A stretch of 64,000 nucleotides of DNA from a virus (lineage: Duplodnaviria > Heunggongvirae > Uroviricota > Caudoviricetes), in the IMG/VR virus record IMGVR_UViG_2821013286_000001, positions 1-64,000 of that record. One strand, 5' to 3'. Position 1 is the stretch's first letter. Each line of letters opens with the position of its first letter. Below are positions 14,063-38,396 of this stretch, piece by piece. The position numbers and the translations under genes are program-made. The notes beneath the pieces are model-generated. The model made no database searches. It worked only from the letters and a program-made list of their open reading frames with translations, and was not told where the DNA came from.

Positions 14063-14701
14063 ATGCTGATAGGCATTTCAGGCGCACACGGTTGCGGCAA
14101 GACCACACTTGCCAAGCAGTACGCAACGCAGTCGGGGCTGGAGTATATTCCAGCCTCAACGAACGAGATTGCCAAGCGTGCAGGCTATGCACATGGCAGC
14201 GTCGATCTGGACATCAATGAGCGGATAAAGTTGCAGTGGAGTATTCTTGAAGGCTTCAAGGGCTTCATCAGGGATTGTCCCGCAAATACGGTCACTGATC
14301 GCACGCCGCTCGATGTTGCAGCCTATACGATGGCTGAAATTGGTATGCATTCGACCAAGCTGGTAGATCCGGCAGTCCTGAAGACGGTTCCGGCTCTCGT
14401 CCGCGAGGCACAGGAATTGACCAAAAAGCGCTTTCAGCATGTTACATTGCTGCGACCGCTTCCGACATATGACGCCATCGACGGGAAACGACCGCCAGCG
14501 AACGAAGCATTCCAGATGCACTATCAGTTCCTGCTGGAAGGTCTCGCCTTTGCAACGCATATGAGCAAGACGTTCACGATTTCCCTTTGCATGACGAACT
14601 CGCTGGAAGCGCGACTTGAAATGCTTTCGGAAGATGTTGCAGACGTGATCGAGCGAAACGGAACACACCAAACACCGGCTGAGCACGTTTTCGTTCACTG
14701 A
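14063..14701 (+). CDS. P-loop nucleoside/nucleotide kinase-like protein
   Basis: Walker A ISGAHGCGKTTLAK at N-terminus; DRTPLDVAAY resembles dNK/dNMP-kinase lid region; between dut and HD nucleotidase. Confidence 0.5.
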   Translation: MLIGISGAHGCGKTTLAKQYATQSGLEYIPASTNEIAKRAGYAHGSVDLDINERIKLQWSILEGFKGFIRDCPANTVTDRTPLDVAAYTMAEIGMHSTKLVDPAVLKTVPALVREAQELTKKRFQHVTLLRPLPTYDAIDGKRPPANEAFQMHYQFLLEGLAFATHMSKTFTISLCMTNSLEARLEMLSEDVADVIERNGTHQTPAEHVFVH

Positions 14702-15385: not shown

Positions 15386-15408
15386 AAAAGTCCTTTTTGG
15401 GGTCTGAA

Positions 15409-16008
15409 ATGACACGTATTGGTAATGCGATGCACACCGCTGCCGGTGGCATCTACTATCCGTTTGATCCACGCGTTGAAGAAGTGGATATCTACACAAT
15501 TGCCCATCACCTTGCGACGCGCGGTCGCTTTAACGGCGCAACGCAGCACAAGAAGCATCCAAGCCGCATCTTCTATTCTGTCGCGGAGCATTCCGTTTAC
15601 GTGGCTTGGTATGTCGAGCACATTCTGAAGCGACCGGACCTGGCACTGACTGCACTACTGCATGATGCGGCTGAAGCCTATAACGGCGATCTGATCCGGC
15701 CGCTGAAGTACAGCCCAGAATTCTCTGCGCCGTTCAAGGCTGTCGAAGAAATCAATGAGGCGGTGATTGCGAAGGCGTTCAATACGCCCTTCCCTATGCC
15801 GCATGAAGTGAAGCTTGCGGATGAGGCTGTCGGTCGTGCAGAGCTTCAGCAGATTGTGCCGAATCCGATTGATCGCGGACCAAACCACTTCGAAGGCGAT
15901 GCGGTCGCCAATATCGAAATCGAAATGTATGAGCCAATCTATGCGCGAAATATGTTTCTGATGGAGTTCAATCGGCTCGTCCCTGCCGAGCAACAGGTGG
16001 AGTGGTAG
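15409..16008 (+). CDS. HD-domain phosphohydrolase (YfbR-like 5'-deoxynucleotidase)
   Basis: HS...H ... LLHDAAEAYNGDL (H..HD motif) with downstream conserved D; ATG 15409 (track TTG 15397). Confidence 0.65.
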   Translation: MTRIGNAMHTAAGGIYYPFDPRVEEVDIYTIAHHLATRGRFNGATQHKKHPSRIFYSVAEHSVYVAWYVEHILKRPDLALTALLHDAAEAYNGDLIRPLKYSPEFSAPFKAVEEINEAVIAKAFNTPFPMPHEVKLADEAVGRAELQQIVPNPIDRGPNHFEGDAVANIEIEMYEPIYARNMFLMEFNRLVPAEQQVEW

Positions 16009-22750: not shown

Positions 22751-25234
22751 ATGCAAGTTTCTCAGATTGCGTCCCTGGACACGCACGTGGTCCTGGGTGG
22801 CGAAAGTGCGCGCGCTTTTAGCATCTCTGATGCGCCTGAATTCTTCACTGTCCTTTCCGACACGCTCTATCAGCACAAAAAGCTCGCTGTTGTCCGCGAA
22901 GTCATCTGCAACGCCTACGATGCTCACATCGTGACGGGTAAGACGGATGTGCCAGTACAGGTCACGTTGACAGATAAGAACCTTGAGATCCGTGATTTCG
23001 GTCTCGGCATTCCCGACGACAAGATTGCGCCGATCTATTGCGTCTATGGGGCCTCTACAAAGGCTGCCGATGGAAAACAGACCGGTGGTTTTGGTCTCGG
23101 TTCGAAGGCGCCTTTCGCTTATTCCGACCACTTCACGGTCACGAGCTGCCATAACGGCGAGAAAACTGTCTATGCGATCTCTCGCGGTGGCGCTGAGACG
23201 GGCGGTCGTCCAGAGGTTCGCGCCGTCGTTCGCATGAAGACCGACGAAACAGGTCTGTCCGTTTCAATTCCGTTGCAGGAAAACGATCGCAATCAGTTTG
23301 AGATCCTGATCAGACGGGTCACGCAGCTCGGCGGAATGAATGTGTCGCTCAATGGCGTAGATATTCCAAAGATCGAATATGATCGCCCTGGCAATGCAGG
23401 CTTCGTCCTAATCCCCTCTTATTCGGACATAATGAGAAATCTGGACAATTACCGGACGACGGTTTTTGTGCGCTACGGAACTGTGGTCTATCCGGTCGAT
23501 GCTGGTCGAGGCGATAGTGAGCTGGACGAAGTGCTTCGTTCGATTGGCTTTGTGCTTGGTTCCAATAGAGCAATTATCGTTCAAGCGCCGGAACACTCCA
23601 TCGGTGTAACACCTTCACGTGAGTCCCTTTCTTACACCAAAAAGACGATGCAAACGCTCGTCCAGATATGTACGTCTGCATTCCATCACATAAAGCGCCA
23701 GATGTCTGTCAGCTTTGCCAACGACTTCGATCATGCGCTCGCTAAGAATAAGGAAAAAGGCGCAGATAAACGCGAAGTGATCTCGCTTATGCTCGGCTCG
23801 TTCGATGGGTCAAGGTTGGACTACAACAAGTCGAACCCTTCGTTGGTAGCGGCGGCCAATGACGGTTACATCAGCAGCCTTGACACAATTGGCTCTGAGC
23901 TTGCCGACAATTACCTGAGTTCGTTCGCTGCGTCCGCGCGTAAGACAGCCTCTCGTCTGGTAGGAAAGCATCATCCAGAGTTGGCGCGCTTGCTTCGCAG
24001 ATGGTCGCCATCTGGCAGTAAATATGACCTGAAACGCGACTACAACAAATTCATGTTGAAGCGCCTAAGCAAGATCAAGGCTTTGATCCAGCCGGTCAAG
24101 TCCGGCTATTTCGATGTGCGCACGAATAGCATCAAGAATGACAGGTTTGAGACCATTTTTGATAGCAGTCAGTTAGTGGCGGATCGAATTGTTGTAAGCC
24201 GAATTCTGCGCGATGCTTACGATGACACCGCCAAGCAGAAATTTGAGTATCATTGCGAATACCACACCGGCTATTACCGAAATTTTCCGGTTTTCACGAT
24301 CAAAAGTGACCTGCCGGAAGCGCGGATTAAGAAGATCACCAAACTCGCAAACAAGCTCGGCTTTCAAATCTCGTTCGCCGAGTACGTGAAGCCAGTTCGG
24401 AAGGCTCCTGCGCCGAAACCTAACTCTGGTTTTCTACGCGCATCGAGCTTCCATCGCTTCGATTATGATGGAAAGATTCAGCCGCGCAACACACTTGAGC
24501 AGGCCGAACTTGAGCGCGTTCCGACGGCGAAGTCCTTCATTCGTGTCACGAGGGCAAGAAACGCAAGACATCTATTCTGGCTTCAGGAAGAGCTGCGGCG
24601 CGATTTTAGCGCGTTCGCCACCCTTTATCCTGACACGGTTCTTGCTACCGATGCTGAAGAGGAAAAGAAGCTGATCAAGCTCGGTGCGCGTCCTGTCCTT
24701 GAGGTTGTTCATGAGGAGCTGAAGGAGGCAACAAAGTTGCAGTCCGCTGCACTTGCATTGGCTTTGCGTCTGCAATGGCACGCCGGGTTCGACGGAGATC
24801 GATACGGCTACGGCTCCAGGGTGAACGATATCGTGAAGCTTTGCTCTGTTTCAGCCGAGTTTGCCAAGTTGGTTCTCGGTGTGAGTGTCAAATACGACGA
24901 AAAGACGGAGCGAATTGCGAAGTTGGGCGATGCTGTTCGTACGGCGATTGGTGTCGCTGGCTTCTCAGAGCAGCGCCGCAACCCATTCACCCACCTGACC
25001 GAACTCTACAATAAACTGAAGGAGAAATATCCAAAGATAATCGGCAATACTGACGCTGTGAAAGAGGCGACAGATTTTATGAAAATAATTGATTCCAACT
25101 ACATCCGCGCAGCAAGCCACAATGATCCCGCTTGCGCTCGTGATGTAATAAATACTGCGAAATATCTTAAACAGAAATTTTCGAAAACTCTCAAGGCTGA
25201 ACAAGCCCAAGCTGTTGTTAAGGAGGCAGCGTAG
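22751..25234 (+). CDS. rIIA: rIIA-like protein (GHKL ATPase N-terminal domain)
   Basis: N-box AVVREVICNAYDAH, G1 IRDFGLGIP, G2 GGFGLGSKAPFAYSDHFTVTSCHNGEK; these track recalled T4 rIIA segments AVVRELITNMIDAH and GGFGLGSKSPFSYTD; 827 aa. Confidence 0.75.
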   Translation: MQVSQIASLDTHVVLGGESARAFSISDAPEFFTVLSDTLYQHKKLAVVREVICNAYDAHIVTGKTDVPVQVTLTDKNLEIRDFGLGIPDDKIAPIYCVYGASTKAADGKQTGGFGLGSKAPFAYSDHFTVTSCHNGEKTVYAISRGGAETGGRPEVRAVVRMKTDETGLSVSIPLQENDRNQFEILIRRVTQLGGMNVSLNGVDIPKIEYDRPGNAGFVLIPSYSDIMRNLDNYRTTVFVRYGTVVYPVDAGRGDSELDEVLRSIGFVLGSNRAIIVQAPEHSIGVTPSRESLSYTKKTMQTLVQICTSAFHHIKRQMSVSFANDFDHALAKNKEKGADKREVISLMLGSFDGSRLDYNKSNPSLVAAANDGYISSLDTIGSELADNYLSSFAASARKTASRLVGKHHPELARLLRRWSPSGSKYDLKRDYNKFMLKRLSKIKALIQPVKSGYFDVRTNSIKNDRFETIFDSSQLVADRIVVSRILRDAYDDTAKQKFEYHCEYHTGYYRNFPVFTIKSDLPEARIKKITKLANKLGFQISFAEYVKPVRKAPAPKPNSGFLRASSFHRFDYDGKIQPRNTLEQAELERVPTAKSFIRVTRARNARHLFWLQEELRRDFSAFATLYPDTVLATDAEEEKKLIKLGARPVLEVVHEELKEATKLQSAALALALRLQWHAGFDGDRYGYGSRVNDIVKLCSVSAEFAKLVLGVSVKYDEKTERIAKLGDAVRTAIGVAGFSEQRRNPFTHLTELYNKLKEKYPKIIGNTDAVKEATDFMKIIDSNYIRAASHNDPACARDVINTAKYLKQKFSKTLKAEQAQAVVKEAA

Positions 25235-25235
25235 A

Positions 25236-26654
25236 ATGAGAAAGGTAACAGTAGCCGCAGCGATCATCACCAAAACGGGCGTTATGCTCTATACGGCTGA
25301 TGGCAAGGAAGTACCGCTCGCGTCAGATGGCTGGCGCACTCAGGAAATTCTTAACCTCGTAACGCCGGTCATCGCGCGCCGCAAAACTATCGAAATCGAC
25401 TTGGACAGCTTCTCGCTGGAGCATGAGGTCGAGCGCAAGACCAACGGCTTTGTTCGCTTCTTCCGCAAGGTCGGTGCGAGCATCACCAGTCTCTTTGGCA
25501 CGAAGGACGGTCAGACAGAACTCGTCACTGACACGCTTACGGAGGCCACAACCGTCGCTGTTGTCAACGGCAAGGAAATTCCAGGAATGGAAAACCTTGA
25601 AAACCACATGATCCACGCCGTTGAAAACGATCAGACGGAAGGTCTCAAAAACTTCCTGGACCGTCTATCTCGCGTGATTGATGAGCGCGGACACTCGGTG
25701 CAGGAACTCCTCAACTTCATGAAGAAGGCTGACCTTCCGATTGCCAATGACGGCTCGATCATCGCCTACAAGACGCTCAACAAGAGCGAGGATCGGTTCG
25801 TTGACTGCCACACCGGCAATGTCAAGCAGCGCGTCGGCTCGCGTGTATCGATGCCGATTGGTTTGGTTGATAAGAACCGCCGCACACTCTGCTCGACTGG
25901 TCTGCACATTGCGCGTCTCCGCTATCTGCGTGGTTACAACGGTAATGTTCTGACACTGGTTAAGATCGCACCGGAAGACGTCGTGAGCGTTCCCTACAGC
26001 GAACCTGACAAGATGCGTGTGGCAGCTTACCACATCGTCAAGCTGCTTCCAGATGACGCTGCGCGTGCCGTTTTCAGCGGTGCATCGATCGCAGGGAACA
26101 AGGAAGCTGAAAAGATGCTTGCTGACGTGATTGCTGGAAAGCACATTCATGTCATCGAGGAAGTTCACATCAAAGGCTCGTACGGCACTGATATCGAAAC
26201 CACTGTCCTTGATGACAAATATAAGCCGGTCGAATCGATTGCCGATTTGTCAACGAAGCCTGTGAAGGTCGAGCTGGTCAAGGAAGGTGGTGGCGGTAAG
26301 CCCGTCGATATCGAGAAGATCCGCGAAACCGCAGACAAGGCGATCGCTGAAAAGGCGAGCGAGACAGAAGTCAAGAAACCTGAAGTCTCCAACGTTGTCG
26401 AGTTCGATGCGGCCAAGACGGTGAACAGTTCAAAGTCGAAGTCGAAGCCGAAGAAGAAAGCCGCCGCTGCGGTGAAGGCTGAGGTTGCGAAGGCTCGTCC
26501 ATCGGTCCCTGCCGCGCCTGACGGCATGAGCGAGCGTGACTTCCAGGTTCTGGCATTGCTCGACAAGGGTGTGTCCAAATCCCAGATCGAACGTGACATG
26601 AAGATTTGCCACAAGACGATCAATAAGATCCTGAAGAAGCATCGCGCTGCCTAA
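25236..26654 (+). CDS. rIIB: rIIB-like protein with C-terminal HTH
   Basis: Central CSTGLHIARLRYLRGY...PEDVVSVPYSEPDKMRVAAYHIV resembles recalled T4 rIIB core (CSRGLHVCS...DVVSIP...KMR); C-terminal LuxR/sigma-region-4-like helix-turn-helix (ERDFQVLALLDKGVSKSQIERDMKICHKTINKIL); AGGAGG SD. Confidence 0.55.
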   Translation: MRKVTVAAAIITKTGVMLYTADGKEVPLASDGWRTQEILNLVTPVIARRKTIEIDLDSFSLEHEVERKTNGFVRFFRKVGASITSLFGTKDGQTELVTDTLTEATTVAVVNGKEIPGMENLENHMIHAVENDQTEGLKNFLDRLSRVIDERGHSVQELLNFMKKADLPIANDGSIIAYKTLNKSEDRFVDCHTGNVKQRVGSRVSMPIGLVDKNRRTLCSTGLHIARLRYLRGYNGNVLTLVKIAPEDVVSVPYSEPDKMRVAAYHIVKLLPDDAARAVFSGASIAGNKEAEKMLADVIAGKHIHVIEEVHIKGSYGTDIETTVLDDKYKPVESIADLSTKPVKVELVKEGGGGKPVDIEKIRETADKAIAEKASETEVKKPEVSNVVEFDAAKTVNSSKSKSKPKKKAAAAVKAEVAKARPSVPAAPDGMSERDFQVLALLDKGVSKSQIERDMKICHKTINKILKKHRAA

Positions 26655-26683
26655 CATTATAGGTAAACGTTTATACAACATTT
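26655..26683. promoter_or_regulatory. palindromic intergenic element
   Basis: ataggTAAACGTTTATACAacattt between rIIB and the RNA ligase gene. Confidence 0.5.
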
Positions 26684-26738
26684 AGAGGCGCATTTCGGTG
26701 CGCTTCTATTCAAGCAATTGTTTTCATGGAGATTTTTT

Positions 26739-27326
26739 ATGCCTGTTACGATCCCTTCCATCCCGTTTCAATCATTCCAGAAGATTGCACGCGCAAACAA
26801 ATTCTCGCTTGGCTGCGTTATCACCGAAAAGATCGACGGTTCCAACGGCCAGATCATGATTGTTGACGGTCAGATCGTGGGTGTTGGCTCGCGCAATCGT
26901 TGGATCGCGCCAGGTAAGGCGAATGACAACTTCGGCTTCGCTGGCTGGATCGAGCGCAACGAGGAAGAAATCCTCAAGCTCGGTGACGGCACGCATTTTG
27001 GCGAGTGGTATGGTGCCGGTATCCAACGTGGCTATGGTCTGACCGGCAGCGACAAGCGTTTCGCTCTGTTTAATGCTGCACGCTGGAGCAACGGCGAGTC
27101 CCGTCCGGCTTGCTGCGGTGTTGTGCCTGTATTGTATGCTGGCGATTTCGATGCCGACATTCTCGATGAAGTCATGACGAACTTGGCGAAGAACGGTTCT
27201 CAGGCCGTCCCTGGCTACATGAAGCCGGAAGGTGTGATCGTCTACATCCCGTCCATCAAGACACTGTTGAAGGCGACATACGACAATCCAGACGGAAAGT
27301 GGCGTGAGCTGCAACTCGCCGCCTAA
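26739..27326 (+). CDS. ATP-dependent RNA ligase-like nucleotidyltransferase (Rnl2-like)
   Basis: Motif I EKIDGSN (KxDGxN), motif IV PEGVIVY, motif V K-rich; only about 196 aa (nucleotidyltransferase domain only). Confidence 0.5.
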   Translation: MPVTIPSIPFQSFQKIARANKFSLGCVITEKIDGSNGQIMIVDGQIVGVGSRNRWIAPGKANDNFGFAGWIERNEEEILKLGDGTHFGEWYGAGIQRGYGLTGSDKRFALFNAARWSNGESRPACCGVVPVLYAGDFDADILDEVMTNLAKNGSQAVPGYMKPEGVIVYIPSIKTLLKATYDNPDGKWRELQLAA

Positions 27327-27414
27327 CGAAAGGAGCGCTTTCGAGCGCTCCAATTTTTACCCTGCGCTCAACGCGCAATAATCAATTCATCAATAATTGC
27401 AGATGGTTAGTGAC

Positions 27415-27654
27415 ATGACGATGAAGTATGTGCGCGACCGCTATGGTGTGCCTGTGAGACGCGGCGGTCGCGTCATTTACACAGGTGAGAAGCATCCCCT
27501 TTTCGGCACCATTCGCAGCGCAACAGGTGGCCGAGTGAATATCGAACTGGACCACGTGCGAGGTGTAATGCCGTTTCATCCGACATGGGAGCTTCACTAT
27601 CTCGCACGCGGCACTGACGAATGTAAGTTGAGGGAAGCCAATGGCATACGGTGA
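27415..27654 (+). CDS. hypothetical protein
   Basis: ATG 27415 within track ORF 27397..27654. Confidence 0.35.
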   Translation: MTMKYVRDRYGVPVRRGGRVIYTGEKHPLFGTIRSATGGRVNIELDHVRGVMPFHPTWELHYLARGTDECKLREANGIR

Positions 27655-27901
27655 TTACAACGGACCAAACAAGCCCGACAAGGGTCAAGAGGACGGAAGC
27701 TGCAACCGCACACGCTGCCAAGCTTCTCCGGCCATCTGGTGGAACCACGGCTCACACAGTTGGTATTGCGCCGACTGCCGACAGGACATCGAGTTCGATA
27801 GCCTCAACTACCGCGACTGGCAGCAGAATTACCGCCCTCGCCTCAATCATCCCATGTTCGAAACGCGCCAGATGATGGACGAGCGAAAGGCTCAGTCATG
27901 A
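27641..27901 (+). CDS. Cys-rich small protein (putative zinc-binding)
   Basis: C..C...C / H.WYCADC pattern (CNRTRC, HSWYCADC). Confidence 0.4.
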   Translation: MAYGDYNGPNKPDKGQEDGSCNRTRCQASPAIWWNHGSHSWYCADCRQDIEFDSLNYRDWQQNYRPRLNHPMFETRQMMDERKAQS

Positions 27902-28668
27902 CCAATACAATCTCCGAAGACATGCTCATTGCCGGCTGCGAGGCATACGATCGCGTAGCGGCGACCAAACACGAGCTATCCTACTCAACCAGAATTGCCA
28001 TGCGTGCTGCATTGGGCGCGGCACTTACCGCCGCTTTCCGTAATCTGCCTGATGCCGAGAAGCTCATAACCGTTGGCGTGCAGCATCAACGCTCCGTGGA
28101 CGGTAAATGGCACTACGGTGAGGCAGCGTACGCCAATCAGCAAGAGCGCGAGCTGGTCACGCGTGAGAACGCACTCCATTGGGCTTGTAAGACGATCACC
28201 GAGCAAGTCCTTATGCAAGTTGAGCGTATTGATACGTTGGAGAAGTTTAAAGCCAATGCTGTTGATAGCCTTCGGCTGGATAACGAATATTTCGATAAGT
28301 CTCAGCAGCAGATCAAGGATCTGGAGGCCGAGGTTGCGACACTAAAGGCTGAAATCAAACGCATTTCGGAAACTGATATCGACTTTAACATCAATAACCA
28401 CGTCCGTGTGCGTCTTACAGATGACGGCAAGGCGATCCTGGCTGCGCAATATGAATCTCTGCGCACCAGTTTTCCGAAACTTCCGCCTCACGCTCCTAAG
28501 CAAGAGGACGAGGACGGTTATGCGTCCTTCCAGATGTGGGATCTGATGCAATCATTTGGCTCGCACATTCATCTTGGTAGCACTCGCCTGCCGTTCCAGA
28601 CTTCGATACGGTTCGAGAATCCTCTGCGCTCGACAGTTTCCAAGGGGGCTGACGATGCAGTTTCTTGA
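27898..28668 (+). CDS. hypothetical coiled-coil protein
   Basis: ATGA overlap; heptad-rich segment QQQIKDLEAEVATLKAEIKRI. Confidence 0.45.
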   Translation: MTNTISEDMLIAGCEAYDRVAATKHELSYSTRIAMRAALGAALTAAFRNLPDAEKLITVGVQHQRSVDGKWHYGEAAYANQQERELVTRENALHWACKTITEQVLMQVERIDTLEKFKANAVDSLRLDNEYFDKSQQQIKDLEAEVATLKAEIKRISETDIDFNINNHVRVRLTDDGKAILAAQYESLRTSFPKLPPHAPKQEDEDGYASFQMWDLMQSFGSHIHLGSTRLPFQTSIRFENPLRSTVSKGADDAVS

Positions 28669-28987
28669 GCTTTTCGGACTTCTCGTTTTCGGTCACATGC
28701 TGGCGGACTACCCATTGCAGGGTGACTTTCTCGCCAAGGCCAAGAACCGCTACATGCCGATTGCCGGAGTGCCTTGGTATCAGGCTCTCGGCGCACATTG
28801 CGTCATTCATGCCGGCTTCGTCGGCGTCATCACCGGCAGCATCGGTCTCGCAGCGTGCGAGTTCTTCGTTCACTGGATCATCGATGACGAGAAATGCGCC
28901 GGAAAGATTTCCTACAATCTGGATCAGGTTCTTCACGTGGCTTGGAAAGCAATTTGGGCCGTGATCATCTTGGGAGTGCTGTCATGA
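28655..28987 (+). CDS. hypothetical membrane protein
   Basis: ATG 28655 in track ORF 28556..28987; several hydrophobic helices. Confidence 0.4.
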   Translation: MQFLELFGLLVFGHMLADYPLQGDFLAKAKNRYMPIAGVPWYQALGAHCVIHAGFVGVITGSIGLAACEFFVHWIIDDEKCAGKISYNLDQVLHVAWKAIWAVIILGVLS

Positions 28988-29865
28988 CCGAACTCAAAAA
29001 CGCTGCATGGGTCCGACCTTCTGAATTACAAAACTTAGAAAGTTCTGGCTTTGGAACGATCTGGCCTACAGACATCGAAGGCTCGCATGGCACAACTGGT
29101 CATTACCTTCCGCTCGTCACACGCGAGAGTGCAGAAAAATACGCAGCCGACCAAGTGAGAGCCGCGCTTTCCCACCCCGCGCCTGCCGTCACAGATACAG
29201 GACTTGAACTTGATATCGATGCGACGGCTGAAAATATCGCCTGTCACTTGTCCAATTATAAGAATTCCGGACGAATTCATGTGCCGACCTATCAGGGGGC
29301 AAAAGCGGGTGCGCTTATGGCGCTTCAATGCGTAGCTCCGGTTACTCGCGAGTGCGGGGAGTTGGTGACGGTTCTAATACAAAAACGCTGCACAAAACTG
29401 GTGAACGGGCATTGGGGGAGTGCGTACCTGCCTGTTGACCAGCCTTTCGACTTAATCTCGACTGACGCGGAGACTGGTAAACAATACGAATATCGTGCCC
29501 TCGTCACCCGCCAGCAGGCTGTAGAGCTATTCGCGGCGGAACGAGCGGAGAAGGAAGAATGGCGCAAACGTTATCACGCCACTCATGAGCGCTTGCTTGA
29601 GACAGACGAAAAGCTTCACACCCTAGAAGCGCAACTCGCAACTGCAAACGCAGACGCTCAAGGCTACAAGTCCACAATCCAGCATCTGACGAAGCGCGCG
29701 GAAACTGCCGAGGCCACCATTGTCACACTTAGCGGACGCCTAACCGACATTTCCGGCAAGATCGGTGCATTTCATGATGCGGATAACGAAGACGCTGAAA
29801 TGCACATCCTGGATGACATTCAGACGATCATTCTGACAGCTACGGAGGAGAAAAACCGTGGCTAA
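28984..29865 (+). CDS. hypothetical protein with C-terminal coiled coil
   Basis: ATGA overlap; 293 aa. Confidence 0.45.
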   Translation: MTELKNAAWVRPSELQNLESSGFGTIWPTDIEGSHGTTGHYLPLVTRESAEKYAADQVRAALSHPAPAVTDTGLELDIDATAENIACHLSNYKNSGRIHVPTYQGAKAGALMALQCVAPVTRECGELVTVLIQKRCTKLVNGHWGSAYLPVDQPFDLISTDAETGKQYEYRALVTRQQAVELFAAERAEKEEWRKRYHATHERLLETDEKLHTLEAQLATANADAQGYKSTIQHLTKRAETAEATIVTLSGRLTDISGKIGAFHDADNEDAEMHILDDIQTIILTATEEKNRG

Positions 29866-30154
29866 ACTGGACCACACGTACATCATCACCGGCAAGGTCG
29901 CCGCAGGTAAGCACGCTGGCGAAACCGTTGCCATTTATCATTCACCAGAAGGCGGCGGTTGGTGGCAGTGGGGTCCGATTGGTTGGGCAACGCCTTTCGT
30001 CATCGATGGAAAATCCACGAACGAAGAATTTAAGGACGCGATCAACTGCGCGCTCGGAAATACGTGGTGTGGCGGCTGCGGTCCTTACTACTACGCCGTC
30101 GATCTCCTCTCAGTTCAGCTCTCCAAGGAAAGAATAACGCGAATATGCACGTGA
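29858..30154 (+). CDS. hypothetical protein
   Basis: GTG start overlapping upstream stop; Cys-Gly-rich (CGGCGPYYY). Confidence 0.4.
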   Translation: MAKLDHTYIITGKVAAGKHAGETVAIYHSPEGGGWWQWGPIGWATPFVIDGKSTNEEFKDAINCALGNTWCGGCGPYYYAVDLLSVQLSKERITRICT

Positions 30155-30333
30155 ACCTAAAGATTGCTCAAATTGCCGTCGAACTACCTGACGGCTCCTT
30201 TGGTGTGGTGGCGCTCGATCCCGACCGGACTGCCCTGCTTCTGCCAATGATTGAAGCGCTGTCGGAAGGACCGATCAAGATTCTCCCAATTCCAGGCATG
30301 AGATATGTGCCCGTAAAGGAGGCGCTCGAATGA
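30145..30333 (+). CDS. hypothetical small protein
   Basis: In-frame ATG of track ORF 30064..30333. Confidence 0.35.
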   Translation: MHVNLKIAQIAVELPDGSFGVVALDPDRTALLLPMIEALSEGPIKILPIPGMRYVPVKEALE

Positions 30334-30611
30334 ATTTCACCGCTGAAATTTGCGAGACGCTGGAGCAAAAGGCTCGCAACTGTCGAGACAATGCTCGTGC
30401 TGAACGCGCCGTTTACGACGCCTTTATTGACGAGTATCACCGAGGAATTACCGGACATCCAGACGCTTCGCCTGAAACTCACAAGCGCTCAATGGAGCTT
30501 TATGACTTCACCATGAAAGGACAGCACCGTGAGCGCGATTTCACGCGGGATGCGGAGCTATTCGAAACACTCGCCGCCATTGGACGCGAAGCACTGGAGA
30601 AACATTCATGA
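30330..30611 (+). CDS. hypothetical protein
   Basis: ATGA overlap; 93 aa. Confidence 0.4.
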   Translation: MNFTAEICETLEQKARNCRDNARAERAVYDAFIDEYHRGITGHPDASPETHKRSMELYDFTMKGQHRERDFTRDAELFETLAAIGREALEKHS

Positions 30612-30684
30612 GCGATGCCGAAGTCAACCTTCTCCTGCTCGTATTCGGCTTCATTGTAGGAACAATTCTCTGGAGACTACCAAG

Positions 30685-30888
30685 ATGAACTTCCTAGAAA
30701 TATCAGGCGCAATCGCTATCTGGTTGGTTGGAACTTACGTGATATGCAGCGCTATCGTGTTCGCGTCGAACATCATCTTCCGAAAATACGAGATTGGCGC
30801 GTTATTCATTGGCGTCAAATTGGCTCTTATCTTTGCCGTGATGTCAGTTGTGGTGGGTCTCATCATGTTAGGTCGCGTTATGGCGTAG
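30685..30888 (+). CDS. small membrane protein
   Basis: Two predicted TM helices; preceded by a 26-aa hydrophobic mini-ORF (30608..30688). Confidence 0.4.
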   Translation: MNFLEISGAIAIWLVGTYVICSAIVFASNIIFRKYEIGALFIGVKLALIFAVMSVVVGLIMLGRVMA

Positions 30889-30906
30889 GCATCTTATTTT
30901 TGTTGT

Positions 30907-30937
30907 CTGTTATGTAAATAAACGTTGATACATAATG
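30907..30937. promoter_or_regulatory. palindromic intergenic element (tandem copy 1)
   Basis: tatgTAAATAAACGTTGATACAtaatg. Confidence 0.5.
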
Positions 30938-30986
30938 AGAATCGGTGCATAAGCCGGTTCTCACCCAACGAGGTGCAGTTTAAAAA

Positions 30987-31015
30987 CAATTATAAATAAA
31001 CATTCACACAAAATC
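30987..31015. promoter_or_regulatory. palindromic intergenic element (tandem copy 2)
   Basis: aattaTAAATAAACATTCACAcaaaatc, 13 nt before ATG 31028. Confidence 0.45.
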
Positions 31016-31027
31016 TTAGGTAACATC

Positions 31028-31246
31028 ATGATCCGAGTTATCCTGCCAGATTACAAGATCGAGGATTTTACATCCGCAAACGATGCGGTGAAGACCATAT
31101 CAGCCAGATATGGTCATTTCTTTTGCGCCCATTCACCGAAGTTTGACATCACAGTCAGTCACGTAATCGAAAGCCTTGAGAAAATCGGCTCTGCTTATGT
31201 CGGTTACGGCTTCAGCTCGATCAGCTTCACCAAGCAGGAGGGCTAA
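31028..31246 (+). CDS. hypothetical protein
   Basis: First gene after two tandem palindromic elements. Confidence 0.4.
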   Translation: MIRVILPDYKIEDFTSANDAVKTISARYGHFFCAHSPKFDITVSHVIESLEKIGSAYVGYGFSSISFTKQEG

Positions 31247-31250
31247 GCAA

Positions 31251-31652
31251 ATGGCTGCATTTCTAGTTGTTAAGAGTGTGGATGCTTACGTCAAATACTC
31301 CACAGTAATCGAGGCTGAAACCGCTCAGGACGCTATCGACGAGGCGCAGCGCTTCGACGTTGAGCATGATTGGCTCCGCGAACGTGAAGTCGAGTTCGAT
31401 GATGCCGACTATCTTCTTGAGGAAGTCGAGGAGCTGACGCCTGAAGAGGTTGAGGAAGAGAAAAGCCGCGAGCCGACCGATCAGTACGATCTGACGGACG
31501 CCGAGCGCGACATGATTATCGCGGCTCTTCGTTTTTGGCAGGCCGGAGACTTCTCTCCCGCAGAGCTTGTCGAAATCGCCAAGAACGGTCGCAGTGATTT
31601 CATGGACGACAATTCCATTGATGATCTGATCGAGGGAAAACTCAATGTTTAA
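31251..31652 (+). CDS. hypothetical acidic protein
   Basis: ATG 31251 within track ORF 31176..31652. Confidence 0.4.
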   Translation: MAAFLVVKSVDAYVKYSTVIEAETAQDAIDEAQRFDVEHDWLREREVEFDDADYLLEEVEELTPEEVEEEKSREPTDQYDLTDAERDMIIAALRFWQAGDFSPAELVEIAKNGRSDFMDDNSIDDLIEGKLNV

Positions 31653-31947
31653 TCGTCTCACCAAAGCCACCTACGGCTTTTTCGCACGCCTGCGCCTGGC
31701 TCTTGCTGCATTCGAGTATGGACACTCTGGCGCAGTGTTCTTCGCCGTCGTCTATGACAGCTACGAAGGACTTGATCGCTCCAAGGACGATCCGCGCGAG
31801 GAATACTACGAGCTTTTCGAGACGCCTGAAGAGGCTGCTTTCATGTTTCGCGATGCATATCCCATTGAGCGAAACATGGCAGACAATCCGCGCCTGGTGA
31901 TGGTCTTTGGCGGCATTGATCGGTACAGGAGCGCCCCAAATGGCTAA
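31645..31947 (+). CDS. hypothetical protein
   Basis: Overlapping start; 100 aa. Confidence 0.4.
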   Translation: MFNRLTKATYGFFARLRLALAAFEYGHSGAVFFAVVYDSYEGLDRSKDDPREEYYELFETPEEAAFMFRDAYPIERNMADNPRLVMVFGGIDRYRSAPNG

Positions 31948-32176
31948 CGTAGTCACCAATACGCAGCGCGCCGGTTGGGCAGCAAAAGCATTGACGGCCT
32001 ATCTCTGCTCGCATGAATGCGACGACGACCCAGAAACAGTCATTCAGGATCTGATCTGCGATCTGCTCCACCTGGCACGCCAACAGTGCGGTACGAGCGA
32101 CAATGGGCTAGTCGCCTTAGCGATGCGAGCTGCTCACGGCAACCAAATCGAAATGTCTGAAGATCCGGAGGTATAA
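31940..32176 (+). CDS. hypothetical protein
   Basis: In-frame ATG in track ORF 31907..32176. Confidence 0.35.
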   Translation: MANVVTNTQRAGWAAKALTAYLCSHECDDDPETVIQDLICDLLHLARQQCGTSDNGLVALAMRAAHGNQIEMSEDPEV

Positions 32177-32177
32177 A

Positions 32178-32405
32178 ATGGACCTCGCGAAAACGCAGTT
32201 CCTAGTCGAAGACCACATCACCCACACGAACATCGTTTCGTACAGACGGCGCAGAAAAGGCATGCTCTTCAAGGGTGGCGAGCCGATGCGTCTGATGGAA
32301 TGGGAGGAATGGTGTCCTTTCAAAGAGAAGTGGCCCGAAGAAATCGCCAAGGACAATGTTACCTGGGAAACGGTCTGGGTGTTGGAGCAGGCGGCATCGA
32401 AATGA
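32178..32405 (+). CDS. hypothetical protein
   Basis: 75 aa; tight spacing. Confidence 0.35.
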   Translation: MDLAKTQFLVEDHITHTNIVSYRRRRKGMLFKGGEPMRLMEWEEWCPFKEKWPEEIAKDNVTWETVWVLEQAASK

Positions 32406-32608
32406 ATGAGACGCCTGAGAAGGATCTTTCCATCACGGAAATGCTCTTAATGATGATGTCCATCGTGCCTTCACTCGCCTGTGTTGGCATCGCCGGTCTG
32501 CTTGTGCTCCGCAACTTAGACGGATGGGGATGGTTTCTGTTTGTCGCCATCTGCTTATTTCCGAGAATTCGCACAGGCAAAGCTGCATTGGAGAAGAATG
32601 ATGACTGA
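32402..32608 (+). CDS. small membrane protein
   Basis: ATGA overlap; two hydrophobic helices. Confidence 0.35.
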   Translation: MNETPEKDLSITEMLLMMMSIVPSLACVGIAGLLVLRNLDGWGWFLFVAICLFPRIRTGKAALEKNDD

Positions 32609-32954
32609 TATATTCGTATTCGGAAGCAATCTCGCCGGTCGTCACGGCGCCGGTGCCGCCAAACACGCACTCATGCATCACGGCGCTATTCTGCTCCAGG
32701 GCGTCGGCTTGCAGGGACGTAGTTACGCAATCCCAACGAAAGACGCTCGCATTCTGACGTTGCCGTTAGAGCGCATCCGTCCATACGTCGAGGAATTCAA
32801 GGAATTCGCTCGCGAGCATCCAGAGCTGACATTCTATGTCACGCCGATCGGCTGCGGCCTCGCAGGCTATAAGCGCTCACAGATCGAGCCGATGTTTGAA
32901 GGCATGCCGGATAACTGCCGGTTTGCTGAAACATGGGAGGATCACGTGGGATGA
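32598..32954 (+). CDS. conserved Gly-loop protein (FGSNLAGRHGAGAA; possible nucleotide/ADP-ribose-binding Rossmann-like fold)
   Basis: FVFGSNLAGRHGAGAAKHA and PIGCGLAGY loosely resemble macro-domain NAAN..GGGV and ISTGIYGYP loops, but the protein is only about 118 aa. Confidence 0.4.
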   Translation: MMTDIFVFGSNLAGRHGAGAAKHALMHHGAILLQGVGLQGRSYAIPTKDARILTLPLERIRPYVEEFKEFAREHPELTFYVTPIGCGLAGYKRSQIEPMFEGMPDNCRFAETWEDHVG

Positions 32955-33127
32955 GTGATAAAATAGCCAAGCTCGACGCTATCGCGAACGCTATGATGGA
33001 TAGCCGTCCCGACCTCGCACCTATGAGCCTTGATGAATGGCTTTTGGAGCATTCCAGCAAACTATCCATTCGCGAACGCAAGGCTTGCGTTGCAATACTC
33101 GAACTTTATCCAGAGTACGGCGGCTGA
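32951..33127 (+). CDS. hypothetical small protein
   Basis: ATGA overlap; 58 aa. Confidence 0.3.
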   Translation: MSDKIAKLDAIANAMMDSRPDLAPMSLDEWLLEHSSKLSIRERKACVAILELYPEYGG

Positions 33128-33309
33128 TGCTCCGCAAACTGCTCTGCAAAATTGGTTTTCATTCGTGGTCCGTCATTGAGTTTGAGACGAGCAGAGTTGG
33201 CGGTCCCTATGTTTGGATGTGCACGTACGAGCCGGAGAGGGTCTGCCGGCACTGCAACAGGCTCAAATATCAAGCCAATTCAGACCCAATGAATTTTCAG
33301 CGAAAGTAG
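33127..33309 (+). CDS. zinc-ribbon-like small protein
   Basis: H..S....C...C..C pattern (HSW...WMCTYEPERVCRHC); TGATG overlap. Confidence 0.35.
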   Translation: MLRKLLCKIGFHSWSVIEFETSRVGGPYVWMCTYEPERVCRHCNRLKYQANSDPMNFQRK

Positions 33310-33322
33310 AAGCATAGAGCGA

Positions 33323-33580
33323 ATGAGCGCTCTGTGTAATGGAAATAATTTGTTTGGTGACGCTATGAGCGACATGGAATGCTGGATCACTCTGCGCTTT
33401 AAAGGCTCAATCGACACCGAGGCTGATCCCGATCAGGTGGCGCAAAATCTTCTGATCTATCTCGAAAATCAAGTTCGTATGGGCAACCAGGATCACGGAT
33501 TCATGGTTGAGCAAAACGGTGATGTGATGGAAGTCGAGACCGAGGATCAGATTTATGAAACTGAAGGACAATTGGAATGA
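33323..33580 (+). CDS. hypothetical acidic protein
   Basis: 85 aa. Confidence 0.4.
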   Translation: MSALCNGNNLFGDAMSDMECWITLRFKGSIDTEADPDQVAQNLLIYLENQVRMGNQDHGFMVEQNGDVMEVETEDQIYETEGQLE

Positions 33581-33711
33581 CGAAGGTCTTCCCCTCAATC
33601 ATGATCCTCATGTCGATCGGAGCGGCAGCCGCATATCTCTACGATGGTGACTGGCGTCGAACGACATATTGGATTGCCGCTTCAATTCTTACCGCCACGG
33701 TGACATTTTAA
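33578..33711 (+). CDS. small membrane protein (44 aa)
   Basis: MTKVFPSIMILMSIGAAAAYLYDGDWRRTTYWIAASILTATVTF; not in track. Confidence 0.3.
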
Positions 33712-33720
33712 GGACCAAAG

Positions 33721-35121
33721 ATGAATATTACAGGGCATACTCTTATCGAATGGGGCTTTAAGCCTGGTCCGATGTTTAAGCAGATGATTGCGGCTGCAAA
33801 CGAAATGCGCGCCAACTGCGTTCTGGACACGGACATTATCGCTCAACTGCACGATCTGGAGCCGGTTGTCGCGCCAACCATTCCGCTGCGCACAAATTCG
33901 ATCCCTTTCGGCCAGTTCATCGAGCCGGAAACTGCTGATGAAATTGAGAACACGGAAGCTGTTATTCGTCACATGGACGCGCTCATGCGCGTCCCAACGA
34001 TCAAGGCTGGCGCAATCATGCCTGACGCCTGTCCTTCCGGCTCCGCGCTTGGAACAATCCCGGTCGGTGGTGTCGTTGCATGCGAGAACGCCATTCATCC
34101 AGGCTTCCATTCTGCCGACATCTGTTGCTCGATGGCTATTTCGATCCTCAATCGCCGTGACGATGTTGGAAAGGTTCTGGACGCGGCGATGAAGTCCACG
34201 CATTTCGGCCCAGGTAAGCGCGCAGCGAGCGAAGTGCGTCAGAATAAGGAAGTTGTTCATCTGATCGAGAAATTCGCTCAGAACCCGTTCCTTGACGGTT
34301 TGGAGAGCTATGGCACGCACCACTTCATGACGCAGGGCGACGGTAATCATTTCCTCTACGTTGGTGAGCTGGAATCGAGCGGCCAGATGGTCATCGTAAC
34401 CCATCACGGTTCTCGCGGCCTGGGAGCGCAGCTCTACAAGCGTGGCAAGCGTGTGGCCGAGAAACACACCAAGATCGTGGCTCCGCGCGTCCCGTTACAC
34501 AACGCCTGGATTGAGGCCAGCTCCATTGATGGTGAAAACTACTGGCAGGCGCTTCAGACGGTTCGCCAGTGGACGAAGATGAACCATTTCGCCATCCACG
34601 ACCTGATTGCTCGGCGTTTGGGCGTTCGCGTGAACGACCGTTTCTGGAACGAGCATAATTTCGTGTTCCAGAAGTCTGACGGCCTTTTCTATCACGCCAA
34701 AGGCGCAACACCTGCTTATGACGGCTTCAGTGCTGATGACAGCGGCTACACGCTCATTCCCCTGAATATGTCTCAGCCGATCCTGATTGCCGGCCACACC
34801 AACTATGATCACGCGCTTGGCTTCGCGCCGCATGGTGCCGGTCGGAATATGTCGCGTACGCAGCATATCAAGCGCCTCGCAGCCGAGTTCGGCGATGACC
34901 GTGGTCTTGGTCCAAAAGCGATTGAGGCAATCATGGCGCGTGAGACGAAAGGTCTGGACGTTCGGTTCTACACGGGCGCGCCGGACGTGTCTGAGCTGCC
35001 TACTGCCTATAAGAACGCCGCACAGGTGCAGGAACAGATTCGAAAGCACAGACTGGCGACGATCGCGGATCGCGTGATGCCGCTTGGTTCAATCATGGCA
35101 GGTGAAGTGCACTGGAAATAA
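33721..35121 (+). CDS. rtcB: RtcB RNA 3'-phosphate ligase
   Basis: RtcB motifs MPDACPSGSALG, GDGNHFLYVGE...VTHHGSRGLGAQ, YHAKGATP, APHGAGRNMSR. Confidence 0.8.
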   Translation: MNITGHTLIEWGFKPGPMFKQMIAAANEMRANCVLDTDIIAQLHDLEPVVAPTIPLRTNSIPFGQFIEPETADEIENTEAVIRHMDALMRVPTIKAGAIMPDACPSGSALGTIPVGGVVACENAIHPGFHSADICCSMAISILNRRDDVGKVLDAAMKSTHFGPGKRAASEVRQNKEVVHLIEKFAQNPFLDGLESYGTHHFMTQGDGNHFLYVGELESSGQMVIVTHHGSRGLGAQLYKRGKRVAEKHTKIVAPRVPLHNAWIEASSIDGENYWQALQTVRQWTKMNHFAIHDLIARRLGVRVNDRFWNEHNFVFQKSDGLFYHAKGATPAYDGFSADDSGYTLIPLNMSQPILIAGHTNYDHALGFAPHGAGRNMSRTQHIKRLAAEFGDDRGLGPKAIEAIMARETKGLDVRFYTGAPDVSELPTAYKNAAQVQEQIRKHRLATIADRVMPLGSIMAGEVHWK

Positions 35122-35149: not shown

Positions 35150-35180
35150 ACATTCTACAATTCTAGAAAAGTAACTTTCT
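35150..35180 (+). promoter_or_regulatory. TTCTAGAAAAG-taa-CTTTCTAGGA inverted repeat overlapping the RBS of gene 35195
   Basis: Two TTCTAG half-sites in an imperfect palindrome; the same half-site occurs in the hub palindrome. Confidence 0.35.
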
Positions 35181-35194
35181 AGGAGGGATACATT

Positions 35195-36783: not shown

Positions 36784-36855
36784 TTACTTCCAATTCTTAC
36801 CCTCAAACGCGTTTGCTAACTTCTAAACATCAAGAGAATTTAAAGAGGTACACAA

Positions 36856-37278
36856 ATGCGCAGCGTCATCGAGCAAAACATCAAGACAGCCGGACAGCAC
36901 ATTATCGGCGTCTTCGATCCTGAGCAGAAGCGAGACAGCTTCGCATACACTGTCGGCAATGCACCGCAAGGTTTCCCAGAACTCCTTCTGATCGGCAGCT
37001 TTCCACCAAATGTCATGATGATGATGCTGAATGCCGTTGGCACTCATATGCGCAACGCGGAATCGCCGCTCGAAGAAGGTATGCTCGATATCGACTGGAC
37101 CTTCCCTTTCAAGATCCGCAAGACTGGTGAGCGCGCCAAGGCCGACTTCACCGTCCAGGCAGGGCAGTATCTCGGCCGCGAGGACTACGAAGTCCTTCAG
37201 GTCATGATTTGCGACAAGCACGGCAAATATCCCGGTGATGCGGGGGTCGCCGAAGGTTTCGATGTAGAACAGCCATAA
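36856..37278 (+). CDS. hypothetical protein
   Basis: 140 aa; AAGAGG SD. Confidence 0.45.
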   Translation: MRSVIEQNIKTAGQHIIGVFDPEQKRDSFAYTVGNAPQGFPELLLIGSFPPNVMMMMLNAVGTHMRNAESPLEEGMLDIDWTFPFKIRKTGERAKADFTVQAGQYLGREDYEVLQVMICDKHGKYPGDAGVAEGFDVEQP

Positions 37279-37681
37279 TTGACGAGCTGGAGCAGCACAA
37301 ATGACCTGGAAGATAGTGTGAGGGTGGCTCCCTCCGTGAAATGAAGCCCCGGCTGAAAGAAATGTACCGGTTATCACATATTCAGACCCTCTTCGCCGAC
37401 GAGCGCTAGAGTGACATGCCGAGGCAATTTGAAGGCCGCTGTCAGAGAGGGAATGAACTGTCACCGCACCCGTCAGGGCAGTCTTGGTGAGAATAATCAA
37501 TCCGTAGAACTCGCCATGCTGGACGACCGCCAGCGCAAAGCGTTTGAACGGGGTAATCGCTTGATTGCTCACGATCCGCACTTCACCCTCCTCGAAGACG
37601 CATTCCTACATGGTGCTGACGTACGAGGGGCTGTGCTGATCAATGAACAATCGAGACAGAGCCTGTTGCTTTTCGTGACAT

Positions 37682-37814: not shown

Positions 37815-38396
37815 ATGAAGCTCGATCCAATAACGCAGCCCCTCGCCTTCCGTGCACGCATCTACGCCGCTGGCGCACACGCAGCCATTGATCAGCGCCG
37901 CAAATACTCGACAGAGCCATACATCGTTCATCCGATTTCTGTTGCCTGCATTCTGAGTAACTACGGCTATGAGGATGACATTGTCCTGGCTGCGGCGCTG
38001 CTACACGACGTCATCGAGGACACGAAAATTACGGCCGAGGAGCTGCGCAGCGAGTTCAAGCATATTCCTGGCGCCAAGAAGATGATCAAGGCTGTCGTTG
38101 AGCTTACGAACGTCGATCGCTCATTTGGAAATCGAGCGACACGTAAGGCTGAGGACCGTCGTCGCCTGTCTCTCGCAAGCAAAACGGCTCATCTGGTGAA
38201 ATGCGCGGACATTCTGGACAACATCACCGGCATTTCGCAGCGCGATCCAAAATTCGGAGAAGTGTATGCGTCCGAAGCGCTCCAGACGCTCAATGTGCTG
38301 ACGCTGGCAGATGACGAAATGCTCACGCTCGCCAAACATCGAGCAGACAAAGAACTGCATCAATGCAGCCTTATTAATTCAAAAACAAAGCAATAA
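37815..38396 (+). CDS. small alarmone hydrolase (RelA/SpoT-family HD-domain (p)ppGpp hydrolase)
   Basis: PYIVHPISVACIL...IVLAAALLHDVIEDT matches the SpoT hydrolase core (PYI.HPL.VA.IL....AALLHDVIEDT); 193 aa, no synthetase domain. Confidence 0.75.
   Translation: MKLDPITQPLAFRARIYAAGAHAAIDQRRKYSTEPYIVHPISVACILSNYGYEDDIVLAAALLHDVIEDTKITAEELRSEFKHIPGAKKMIKAVVELTNVDRSFGNRATRKAEDRRRLSLASKTAHLVKCADILDNITGISQRDPKFGEVYASEALQTLNVLTLADDEMLTLAKHRADKELHQCSLINSKTKQ

Follow-up and report, generated by a model that had tools for sequence, protein, structure and literature searches.

Here, we analysed a 64,000-nt stretch of tailed-phage DNA (Caudoviricetes; positions 1 to 64,000 of the IMG/VR virus record IMGVR_UViG_2821013286_000001, in the following "the window") that encodes two putative end-joining enzymes downstream of rIIA and rIIB, namely an RtcB-type RNA ligase and a much smaller, ATP-dependent ligase of 195 aa. 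The original prediction had described both ligases as a joint RNA-repair toolkit that parallels the Pnkp–Rnl1 answer of phage T4 to host anticodon nucleases. From our sequence comparisons, the best explanation, which we consider fairly probable, is a different one: the early accessory region would supply two independent end-joining enzymes, of which RtcB would act against breaks in tRNA or rRNA, and the 195-aa ligase would serve in the phage's own nucleic-acid metabolism. Phages with RtcB plus ATP-dependent RNA ligases have already been described, and both gene types are annotated in related phages; with respect to this combination, the present phage is one more example of a catalogued case. 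The chief interest lies in the question of what the abundant PF09414 ligases without additional domains do.

The phage RtcB

The RtcB frame encodes 466 aa that match Pfam RtcB (PF01139, E 2.3e-28, 100 bits with a cut-off of 27) and, over the full length, PHROG 1075 'tRNA splicing ligase' (E 4.7e-93), and the protein is 64–70% identical to annotated RtcBs of Rhizobium phages of 115–122 kb; phages with such an annotation include RHph_X66, B1VFA and V1VFA-S. When the window protein was aligned with four members of its clade and three canonical RtcBs, the residues D102, D133, C136 (ADICC), N209-H210 (GNHF), H228 (HHGSRG) and H312-N313 were invariant, as was the nucleophile motif H371-G-A-G-R375 (PHGAGR). 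These profile matches and invariant catalytic and metal-binding residues bear out the earlier statement that all RtcB signature motifs are present, and judged by its sequence the protein is a genuine RtcB with an intact catalytic site. In comparison to the RtcBs of E. coli and Pyrococcus horikoshii, the metal-binding residues and the histidine nucleophile are the same and the Pfam score is above the cut-off, but the window protein shares only 24–27% identity with E. coli-like phage RtcBs and is extended at the N-terminus by about 75 aa, and its clade reads MPDAC where canonical RtcBs read MPDxH. Sequence matches to solved RtcBs are weak, with about 30 bits, and the NCBIfam RtcB models score far below their cut-offs, and we therefore assign the window RtcB to a divergent clade. 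The N-terminal segment (residues 1–75, encoded at 33721–33945) is specific for this clade, as it is kept in five phage RtcBs and absent from the canonical ones. It contains a conserved WG-x-x-PG-x-W/F-K motif and has a sub-threshold resemblance to the CCA-adding-enzyme domain tRNA_NucTran2_2 (PF13735, E 0.015).

According to the established mechanism of the family, His371 would be guanylylated by GTP in the presence of Mn2+, a 2',3'-cyclic phosphate would be opened so that the RNA 3'-phosphate can accept the GMP, and the attack of the 5'-OH would then reseal the break. Anticodon nucleases leave 2',3'-cyclic phosphate and 5'-OH ends, and RtcB seals such ends alone, whereas an ATP-dependent ligase requires the prior action of a kinase-phosphatase. 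As the RtcB chemistry by itself heals and seals the ends that are generated by anticodon nucleases or other metal-independent RNases, RtcB is likely the phage's counter to tRNA or rRNA cleavage, and a second ligase would not be needed for this purpose. The T4 Pnkp–Rnl1 system that acts against PrrC is similar in that a phage encodes the rejoining of broken RNA; it differs in that no kinase-phosphatase was found here, nor a ligase of the Rnl1 type with its tRNA-binding domain, and RtcB would replace the pathway by another chemistry. The proposed parallel to T4 is thus not supported for the small ligase, because RtcB would do the sealing alone and no kinase-phosphatase was found that could prepare the ends for an ATP-dependent enzyme.

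In agreement with the original prediction, neither kinase-phosphatase nor tRNA genes were detected in the window, as judged by Pfam scans of all larger ORFs and by ARAGORN, which also found no tRNA in 20 kb of the flanking contig, and an Rfam search of the window and the contig flanks gave no match. Neither in the larger ORFs of the window nor in the small ones that separate the ligase genes did the Pfam scans recover an archease, Pnkp, CCA-adding enzyme or RlaP; the archease profile (PF01951), which had been suggested for a check, matched none of the ORFs scanned. The only P-loop kinase-like protein (AAA_28, 14063–14701) is encoded between the dUTPase and a 5'-deoxynucleotidase and looks like an enzyme of nucleotide metabolism. 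Two candidates from other phages were also dismissed. In Caulobacter phage CcrBL9, a 'nucleotidyltransferase' gene adjoins that of the small ligase, but its product matched no Pfam family, and a link to RlaP is unsupported. An HD phosphohydrolase that adjoins the small ligase in the Rhizobium phages RHph_X66 (X66) and B1VFA was rejected as an end-healing partner since this adjacency is not conserved: the window homologue is found 11 kb upstream (15397–16008) together with HNH and DnaQ genes, in a region that holds a Pfam match to YfbR-like 5'-deoxynucleotidases.

As a side observation, the phage contig L094 encodes an E. coli-like RtcB of 404 aa (L094:2983-4197) with a similar downstream content, comprising NadM/Nudix, NAMPT and p231, a homologue of the protein encoded directly downstream of RtcB in the window. 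The 466-aa clade is absent there, and by sequence this appears to be a non-orthologous RtcB replacement in a comparable accessory region.

The small ligase

The second ligase matches Pfam RNA_ligase (PF09414, E 1.3e-13, 51.9 bits with a cut-off of 27) and PHROG 548 'RNA ligase' (E 1.1e-27). Motif I is E30-K31-I-D33-G34-S-N36 (KIDGSN), with K31, encoded at 26829–26831, as the predicted AMP-accepting lysine; motif Ia corresponds to S51-R52, motif III to E89, motif IIIa to F111-N112, motif IV to P163-E164-G165 (PEGVIVY) and motif V to K178. The residues E30, K31, D33, G34, N36, S51, R52, E89, F111, N112, E164, G165 and K178 are invariant in 30 diverse homologues, and the earlier description of a second ligase of about 196 aa with motifs I, IV and V could thus be confirmed, apart from a length of 195 aa. 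In a family-profile search of the sequences of solved structures, T4 Rnl2 was the best match (E 0.0035), and hhalign aligned both proteins with 92.7% probability, placing K31 on K35, R52 on R55 and E89 on E99. The lysine-adenylate motif, on which the original prediction had made the assignment depend, therefore survives a careful alignment.

The homologues form more than 5,700 clusters at 90% identity, the best 120 of which have lengths of 175–217 aa. As a length of about 190 aa is shared among the homologues, the small size is a property of the family and not the result of a truncation. The AlphaFold2 model (pLDDT 87.3) has a single short terminal helix and only about 24 residues before the first nucleotidyltransferase strand, and at the other end motif V is at residue 178, with the protein ending 17 residues beyond. 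In a Foldseek search of the PDB, the model matched NgrRnl (Rnl5) best, with E-values of 2e-5 to 2e-4 and a TM-score of about 0.57 over the query, followed by T4 Rnl2 and archaeal Rnl3, and DNA ligases ranked lower. As modeled, the small ligase is a bare nucleotidyltransferase domain with complete covalent nucleotidyltransferase motifs and an RNA-ligase-type fold, without any flanking domain.

The label 'Rnl2-like' that had been given to this protein is only partly adequate. In comparison to T4 Rnl2 and trypanosome REL1, motifs I, Ia, III and IIIa correspond position by position and motif I retains its Thr/Ser-Asn, but the C-terminal helical domain is lacking, and motif I reads KIDG and not KIHG. 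The C-terminal domain of T4 Rnl2 is required for full nick sealing. It comprises about residues 244–329 and is responsible for substrate specificity (domain limits from PMC4599027). With the Rnl5 enzymes NgrRnl of Naegleria gruberi and DraRnl of Deinococcus radiodurans, which are the top structural matches, the small ligase shares the KxDG form of motif I, and the spacing of 14 residues between the motif IV glutamate and the motif V lysine is that of E312–K326 in NgrRnl (numbers from PDB entry titles); it differs by the absence of the N-terminal OB-like module, and TIGR02306 scores 15 bits with a cut-off of 151. Because the C-terminal domain of Rnl2 is missing and the fold is at least as near to Rnl5, 'Rnl2-like' is acceptable only loosely, at the level of the PF09414 superfamily. 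T7 gp1.3-type ATP-dependent DNA ligases differ from the small ligase, which has no OB domain and KIDGSN in place of KxDGxR in motif I; the motif I arginine is typical of DNA ligases.

To our knowledge, all characterised RNA ligase families (Rnl1 to Rnl5) require a domain beside the nucleotidyltransferase core, and no paper characterising a PF09414 ligase of about 190 aa was found in a literature search. The isolated N-terminal domain of Rnl2 acts similarly to DraRnl without its N-terminal module. In the published study of DraRnl, the module is described as important for adenylylation and nick sealing, but a nick that is already adenylylated can be taken through the final phosphodiester step without it (PMC1807946). 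This need for flanking domains in DraRnl and Rnl2 suggests that the small ligase may depend on a partner or on a special substrate. In the case of trypanosome REL1, an OB-fold partner acts in trans (PMC4599027). A protein that resembles the small ligase by description is DpRNL of Diplonema papillatum, a 203-aa 'deviant RNA ligase 2' that has been studied by modeling only (PMC4599027). It likewise belongs to PF09414, is of nearly equal size, and has a shortened nucleotidyltransferase domain with almost no C-terminal domain, but it is a eukaryotic, mitochondrial protein.

Genomic relationship of the two ligases

The genes of RtcB and the small ligase are separated by 6,395 nt with about 20 small, mostly unconserved ORFs, and they appear to be parts of different transcription units. 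The small-ligase gene lies between a promoter- or operator-like motif and a terminator-like hairpin (Table 1), and RtcB is found in a gene run downstream of another copy of that motif, at 30993. The 18-nt core TAAATAAACGTTTACACA of the motif has 13 copies in the window at up to three mismatches, compared with 0.02 expected by chance, and several copies of the approximately 25-nt intergenic motif have a GC-rich hairpin at most about 10 nt downstream. Judged by its sequence and distribution, the repeated motif probably serves as a promoter or operator that is specific to the phage. About 8 kb upstream of the window, the contig also encodes a sigma-70 region-2 protein (L123:1368-2018).

The distribution of the two genes in other phages indicates that they have separate histories. 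RtcB is present with 64–66% identity in six related rhizobiophages (RHph_N1_15, N2_6, N1_10, RHEph10, Y2_11 and Y2_17_1), the only six Rhizobium phage records with the small ligase include none of these phages, and the T7-like phage RHEph21 has the small ligase and no RtcB among its 52 annotated features. Of 80 viral contigs with the small ligase, only 2 encode an RtcB at a distance of up to 10 kb, one of the two being a close relative; co-occurrence was judged among the best matches listed, up to 60 per search, and such numbers are not an exact genome-wide count. One relative, whose DNA is about 85% identical in the vicinity of p231, lacks the entire 12.4 kb that extend from rIIA through the small ligase to RtcB (22751–35121), and between its Band_7 gene and p231 about 3 kb of unrelated sequence take their place (L098:2916-6000). 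Based on the distance, the separate signals, the independent inheritance and the rare proximity, the pairing of the two ligases is not supported, and we think it reasonably probable from these comparisons that the two enzymes do not act as a paired toolkit.

Neighbourhood and possible role of the small ligase

In the small ligase, K31 would be adenylylated by ATP, and the enzyme would seal nicks with 3'-OH and 5'-phosphate ends. Indications for its role come from its genomic company in other phages, for which we evaluated a sample of 150 neighbouring ORFs from viral loci, each with a length of at least 180 aa and no more than 4 kb away from the small ligase. DNA_pol_A was the commonest neighbour family with 10 members, followed by AAA_24, 5'-3' exonuclease and Helicase_C with 4 each, and by T7-type primase/helicase, DNA methylases, PD-(D/E)XK nucleases and dNMP kinase with 3 each; ThyX was one of several families with 2 members, and no RNA-repair family was among the top 25. 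Individual phages give the same picture. In RHEph21, whose annotation contains no DNA ligase, the small ligase is flanked by primase/helicase and DNA polymerase. Its flanking genes in Mycobacterium phage Tucker are those of ribonucleotide reductase and ThyX, and in Caulobacter phage CcrBL9 those of DNA polymerase I and a Dda-like helicase, and in an N4-like Vibrio phage it directly follows the DNA polymerase. A T7-like prophage of Mesorhizobium has the RNA polymerase gene first, then three small genes and the small ligase, followed by SSB, endonuclease I, primase/helicase and DNA polymerase; the small ligase is thus found at what we take to be the place that gene 1.3 with its DNA ligase occupies in T7. 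These neighbours in replication and dNTP synthesis speak for a function in the nucleic-acid metabolism of the phage itself, where the small ligase would most likely act on nicked RNA-containing duplexes rather than as a second arm of the RtcB pathway.

A narrower possibility is that the small ligase is a minimal nick-sealing enzyme of replication or recombination that substitutes for or supplements a DNA ligase, for example at RNA–DNA junctions or ribonucleotide nicks, and that another protein might contribute the domain for nucleic-acid binding in trans, like KREPA2 in the case of trypanosome REL1. The T7-like gene order, the situation in RHEph21, the adjoining DNA polymerase, ThyX or ribonucleotide reductase genes in the Mycobacterium, Caulobacter and Vibrio phages, and the frequency of DNA_pol_A all fit this idea, and no homologue of the ATP-dependent DNA ligase of X66 was found in 83 kb of the phage studied here. 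However, X66 has this canonical DNA ligase as well as the small ligase, which is thus not simply a replacement, and the small ligase lacks both the OB domain and the motif I arginine of DNA ligases. We therefore treat a dedicated replication ligase as a tentative option that is rather less likely to be true than false.

Several observations weigh against our preferred explanation with two independent enzymes. Early phage genes generally have replication genes nearby, and the neighbourhood argument, also for a replication ligase, discriminates only weakly. Motif I keeps the Thr/Ser-Asn of Rnl2 and not the arginine of DNA ligases, and the best structural matches are RNA ligases, so that an RNA substrate remains plausible. 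The window, X66, V1VFA-S and B1VFA keep the genes of both ligases in the same order after rIIA–rIIB. Furthermore, the RNA-repair genes pnk and rnlA of T4 are not adjacent either, and physical separation therefore does not exclude a cooperation. Finally, the promoter and terminator calls are pattern matches only.

It is in the light of these observations that the toolkit of the original prediction has to be judged, in which both enzymes would work on the same damaged RNAs, typically tRNAs, RtcB on breaks with 2',3'-cyclic phosphate and 5'-OH ends and the small ligase on those with 3'-OH and 5'-phosphate ends, so that both end chemistries of host ribonucleases would be covered. Besides the common gene order and the RNA-ligase-like motif I and fold of the small ligase, the intactness of both enzymes speaks for such a toolkit, as does the argument that multiple phage RNA ligases are non-redundant (PMC7824862), and the HD_4 hydrolase gene described below would also fit. 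On the other hand, the genes have signals of their own and a distance of 6.4 kb, their linkage does not extend beyond one subclade (2 of 80 loci), either gene is found without the other, no kinase-phosphatase was found, and replication genes are the family-wide neighbours of the small ligase. We consider a joint toolkit unlikely, and favour the two independent enzymes.

With respect to the whole family, it can be envisaged that these biochemically uncharacterised proteins of more than 5,700 clusters include the smallest self-sufficient polynucleotide ligase, or a ligase that is completed in trans, and that in many phages they have a role in the replication module, at the place of the T7 DNA ligase, and not in RNA repair. 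This would be a bold generalization, which we regard as improbable so far. If it were true that the 195-aa enzyme ligates alone or is completed in trans, it would change the view of what a minimal ligase is, and the enzyme would possibly be a useful reagent. The neighbours suggest that the label 'RNA ligase' on thousands of phage genes may misstate their function.

Table 1. Positions of the ligase genes, their putative signals and selected neighbouring features in the window.
Feature	Position	Strand	Basis and remarks
Stand-alone adenylyltransferase-domain ligase (PF09414), predicted, 195 aa	26739..27326	+	Family matches, invariant motifs, T4 Rnl2 alignment, AlphaFold2 model
RtcB 3'-phosphate/5'-OH RNA ligase, predicted; divergent phage clade with N-terminal extension of about 75 aa	33721..35121	+	Profile matches, solved-structure matches, conserved catalytic residues
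Promoter- or operator-like motif ATTATAGGTAAACGTTTATACAACA	26656..26680	+	Just past the rIIB stop, 59 nt upstream of the small-ligase ATG; core TAAATAAACGTTTACACA
GC-rich hairpin AGGCGCA-tttcgg-TGCGCTT	26686..26705	+	Between motif and ligase ribosome-binding site; read from the sequence
Terminator-like hairpin GGAGCGCTTTCGAGCGCTCC, followed by AATTTTT	27332..27351	+	6 nt past the small-ligase stop; 8 pairs, 6 of them G-C
Repeated intergenic motif of about 25 nt, ATTATAAATAAACGTTTACACAACA, palindromic core TAAACGTTTA	824, 1227, 9020(-), 20949, 26660, 30915, 30993, 37688, 47188(-), 49195(-), 50279, 58135(-), 60879		
A1S_2505-family protein (N4 gp14-like)	32604..32954	+	NCBIfam NF049995, E 1.2e-45; best-conserved small gene upstream of RtcB
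Inverted repeat CTAGAAA-agtaac-TTTCTAG (7 bp, N6)	35163..35182	+	Abuts AGGAGGG of the p231 gene
Orphan protein p231, 231 aa	35195..35890	+	No family and no structural relative in the searches
HD_4 small-alarmone-hydrolase-like protein	37815..38396	+	Pfam HD_4 (PF13328), E 2.7e-14; 2.7 kb downstream of RtcB

Other genes in the vicinity of RtcB

The HD_4 protein scores 53.6 bits with PF13328 (cut-off 27.2) and matches the RelA/SpoT hydrolase region of TIGR00691 (E 4.1e-23) at model positions 5–138 only, without a synthetase domain. A homologue directly abuts RtcB in Bradyrhizobium phage BDU-MI-1 (L091:3442-3996), and another one is encoded 2.6 kb away from RtcB in RHph_N1_15 (L093:8021-8578). 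When toxic alarmone synthetases have pyrophosphorylated the 3' ends of tRNAs, this modification is removed again by some of the small alarmone hydrolases (bioRxiv 10.1101/2021.04.30.441581). By analogy, the HD_4 protein may have a function in tRNA 3'-end repair or against toxic small alarmone synthetases (toxSAS), and since some enzymes of this class restore tRNA 3' ends, its gene may be a more relevant companion of RtcB in tRNA protection than the small ligase.

Upstream of RtcB, the A1S_2505-family protein is 78% identical to a homologue near RtcB in X66 and B1VFA. It was rejected as an RtcB-specific partner, as its family is found in 339 phage records that are largely N4-like and outside of the organism groups that hold most RtcB matches. 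Homologues are annotated as ADP-ribosylglycohydrolase in some records, and the motifs FGSN..G.HG.GAA and IGCGLAGY looked macro-domain-like by sequence.

The gene directly downstream of RtcB encodes p231, whose ATG at 35195 is preceded by an AGGAGGG ribosome-binding site. The original prediction had pointed to a TTCTAG inverted repeat around this ribosome-binding site and had considered p231 as a partner or regulator. The repeat is real, as a 7-bp repeat that abuts the AGGAGGG, but it is statistically unremarkable: CTAGAAA-N6-TTTCTAG is unique in the window, 10 of 100 shuffles gave at least one match at up to two mismatches, and the local fold has a z of −1.58. A confident structure model of p231 was obtained, yet the searches returned no recognisable family or structural relative. 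The p231 family comprises 17 clusters with two invariant motifs, MGIRIHRAMGWGM in the N-terminal and LRPxIAQWW in the C-terminal part.

p231 could be an accessory factor or regulator of RtcB with a role like that of archease, and its translation could be tuned by the hairpin that overlaps the ribosome-binding site. The family adjoins RtcB in 3 of about 17 contexts. Homologues are encoded 0.8 kb downstream of RtcB in L094/L095 (p231 at L094:5001-5717) and directly upstream of RtcB, with overlapping genes, in L096 (p231 at L096:5001-5684), and the RtcBs of these contigs belong to the E. coli-like type with only 24–27% identity to the window RtcB; that the association is also seen with another RtcB clade is a hint of a functional connection. 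The invariance of acidic and aromatic residues across the p231 family and the lack of a detected archease are further points in favour of a partnership. Yet, no RtcB is encoded within the 5–6 kb of fetched flanking sequence, or less at contig ends, in about 13 other contexts, which include a relative with a 91% identical p231, and both genes are 20 kb apart in RHph_N1_10. The A1S_2505 gene adjoins p231 at least as often (L099/L116, L106, L120), the hairpin is weak, and neither fold nor family gives a clue. The proposed partnership thus retains a weak association with RtcB in some contexts, which did not extend to the closest relative examined, and we regard it as quite doubtful. The p231 gene is a candidate accessory or anti-defence gene, and its product has no known fold.

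Source phage and further observations

Nearly all genes of the window are on the plus strand. The rIIA (22751–25234) and rIIB (25215–26654) genes upstream of the small ligase were identified by PHROG matches with E-values of 2e-124 and 1e-110, respectively, and other genes of the window encode ribonucleotide reductase, dUTPase, ThyX, SbcCD-like proteins, DnaQ, ParA/ParB, a UvsW-like helicase, terminase, portal and capsid. In a DNA-level search of the phage collection, no close phage was found for the window. At the protein level, the nearest relatives are the Rhizobium phages RHph_X66, V1VFA-S, B1VFA, RHph_N1_15 and RHEph10, which have genomes of 115–122 kb. A 107,890-bp contig of Ochrobactrum sp. 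P20RRXII encodes a hypothetical protein with 100% identity to p231, and the flanks of the matching 107,825-bp contig encode a DnaE-type polymerase, a gp32-like SSB, RecA, a sigma factor and lambda-like tail genes. From this identity and the gene content of the flanks we conclude that the window derives, by sequence, from a large, siphovirus-type phage of about 108 kb with a Rhizobiales (Ochrobactrum-like) host.

Some further genes are mentioned for completeness. Between the two ligases, two longer ORFs reach with their ends into the gene of a DUF3307 membrane protein (28556–28987, E 5.8e-7), which is in a different frame, and the gene calls are uncertain at this point. A DUF4262 protein (36856–37278, E 2.4e-23) is encoded between p231 and the HD_4 gene, and a minus-strand ORF of 252 aa that overlaps its gene (36823–37581) is probably spurious. 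Upstream of the window, the same contig encodes a DnaE-type DNA polymerase III alpha subunit of 1,120 aa (L123:2713-6075) with an extra match to uracil-DNA-glycosylase (PF03167).

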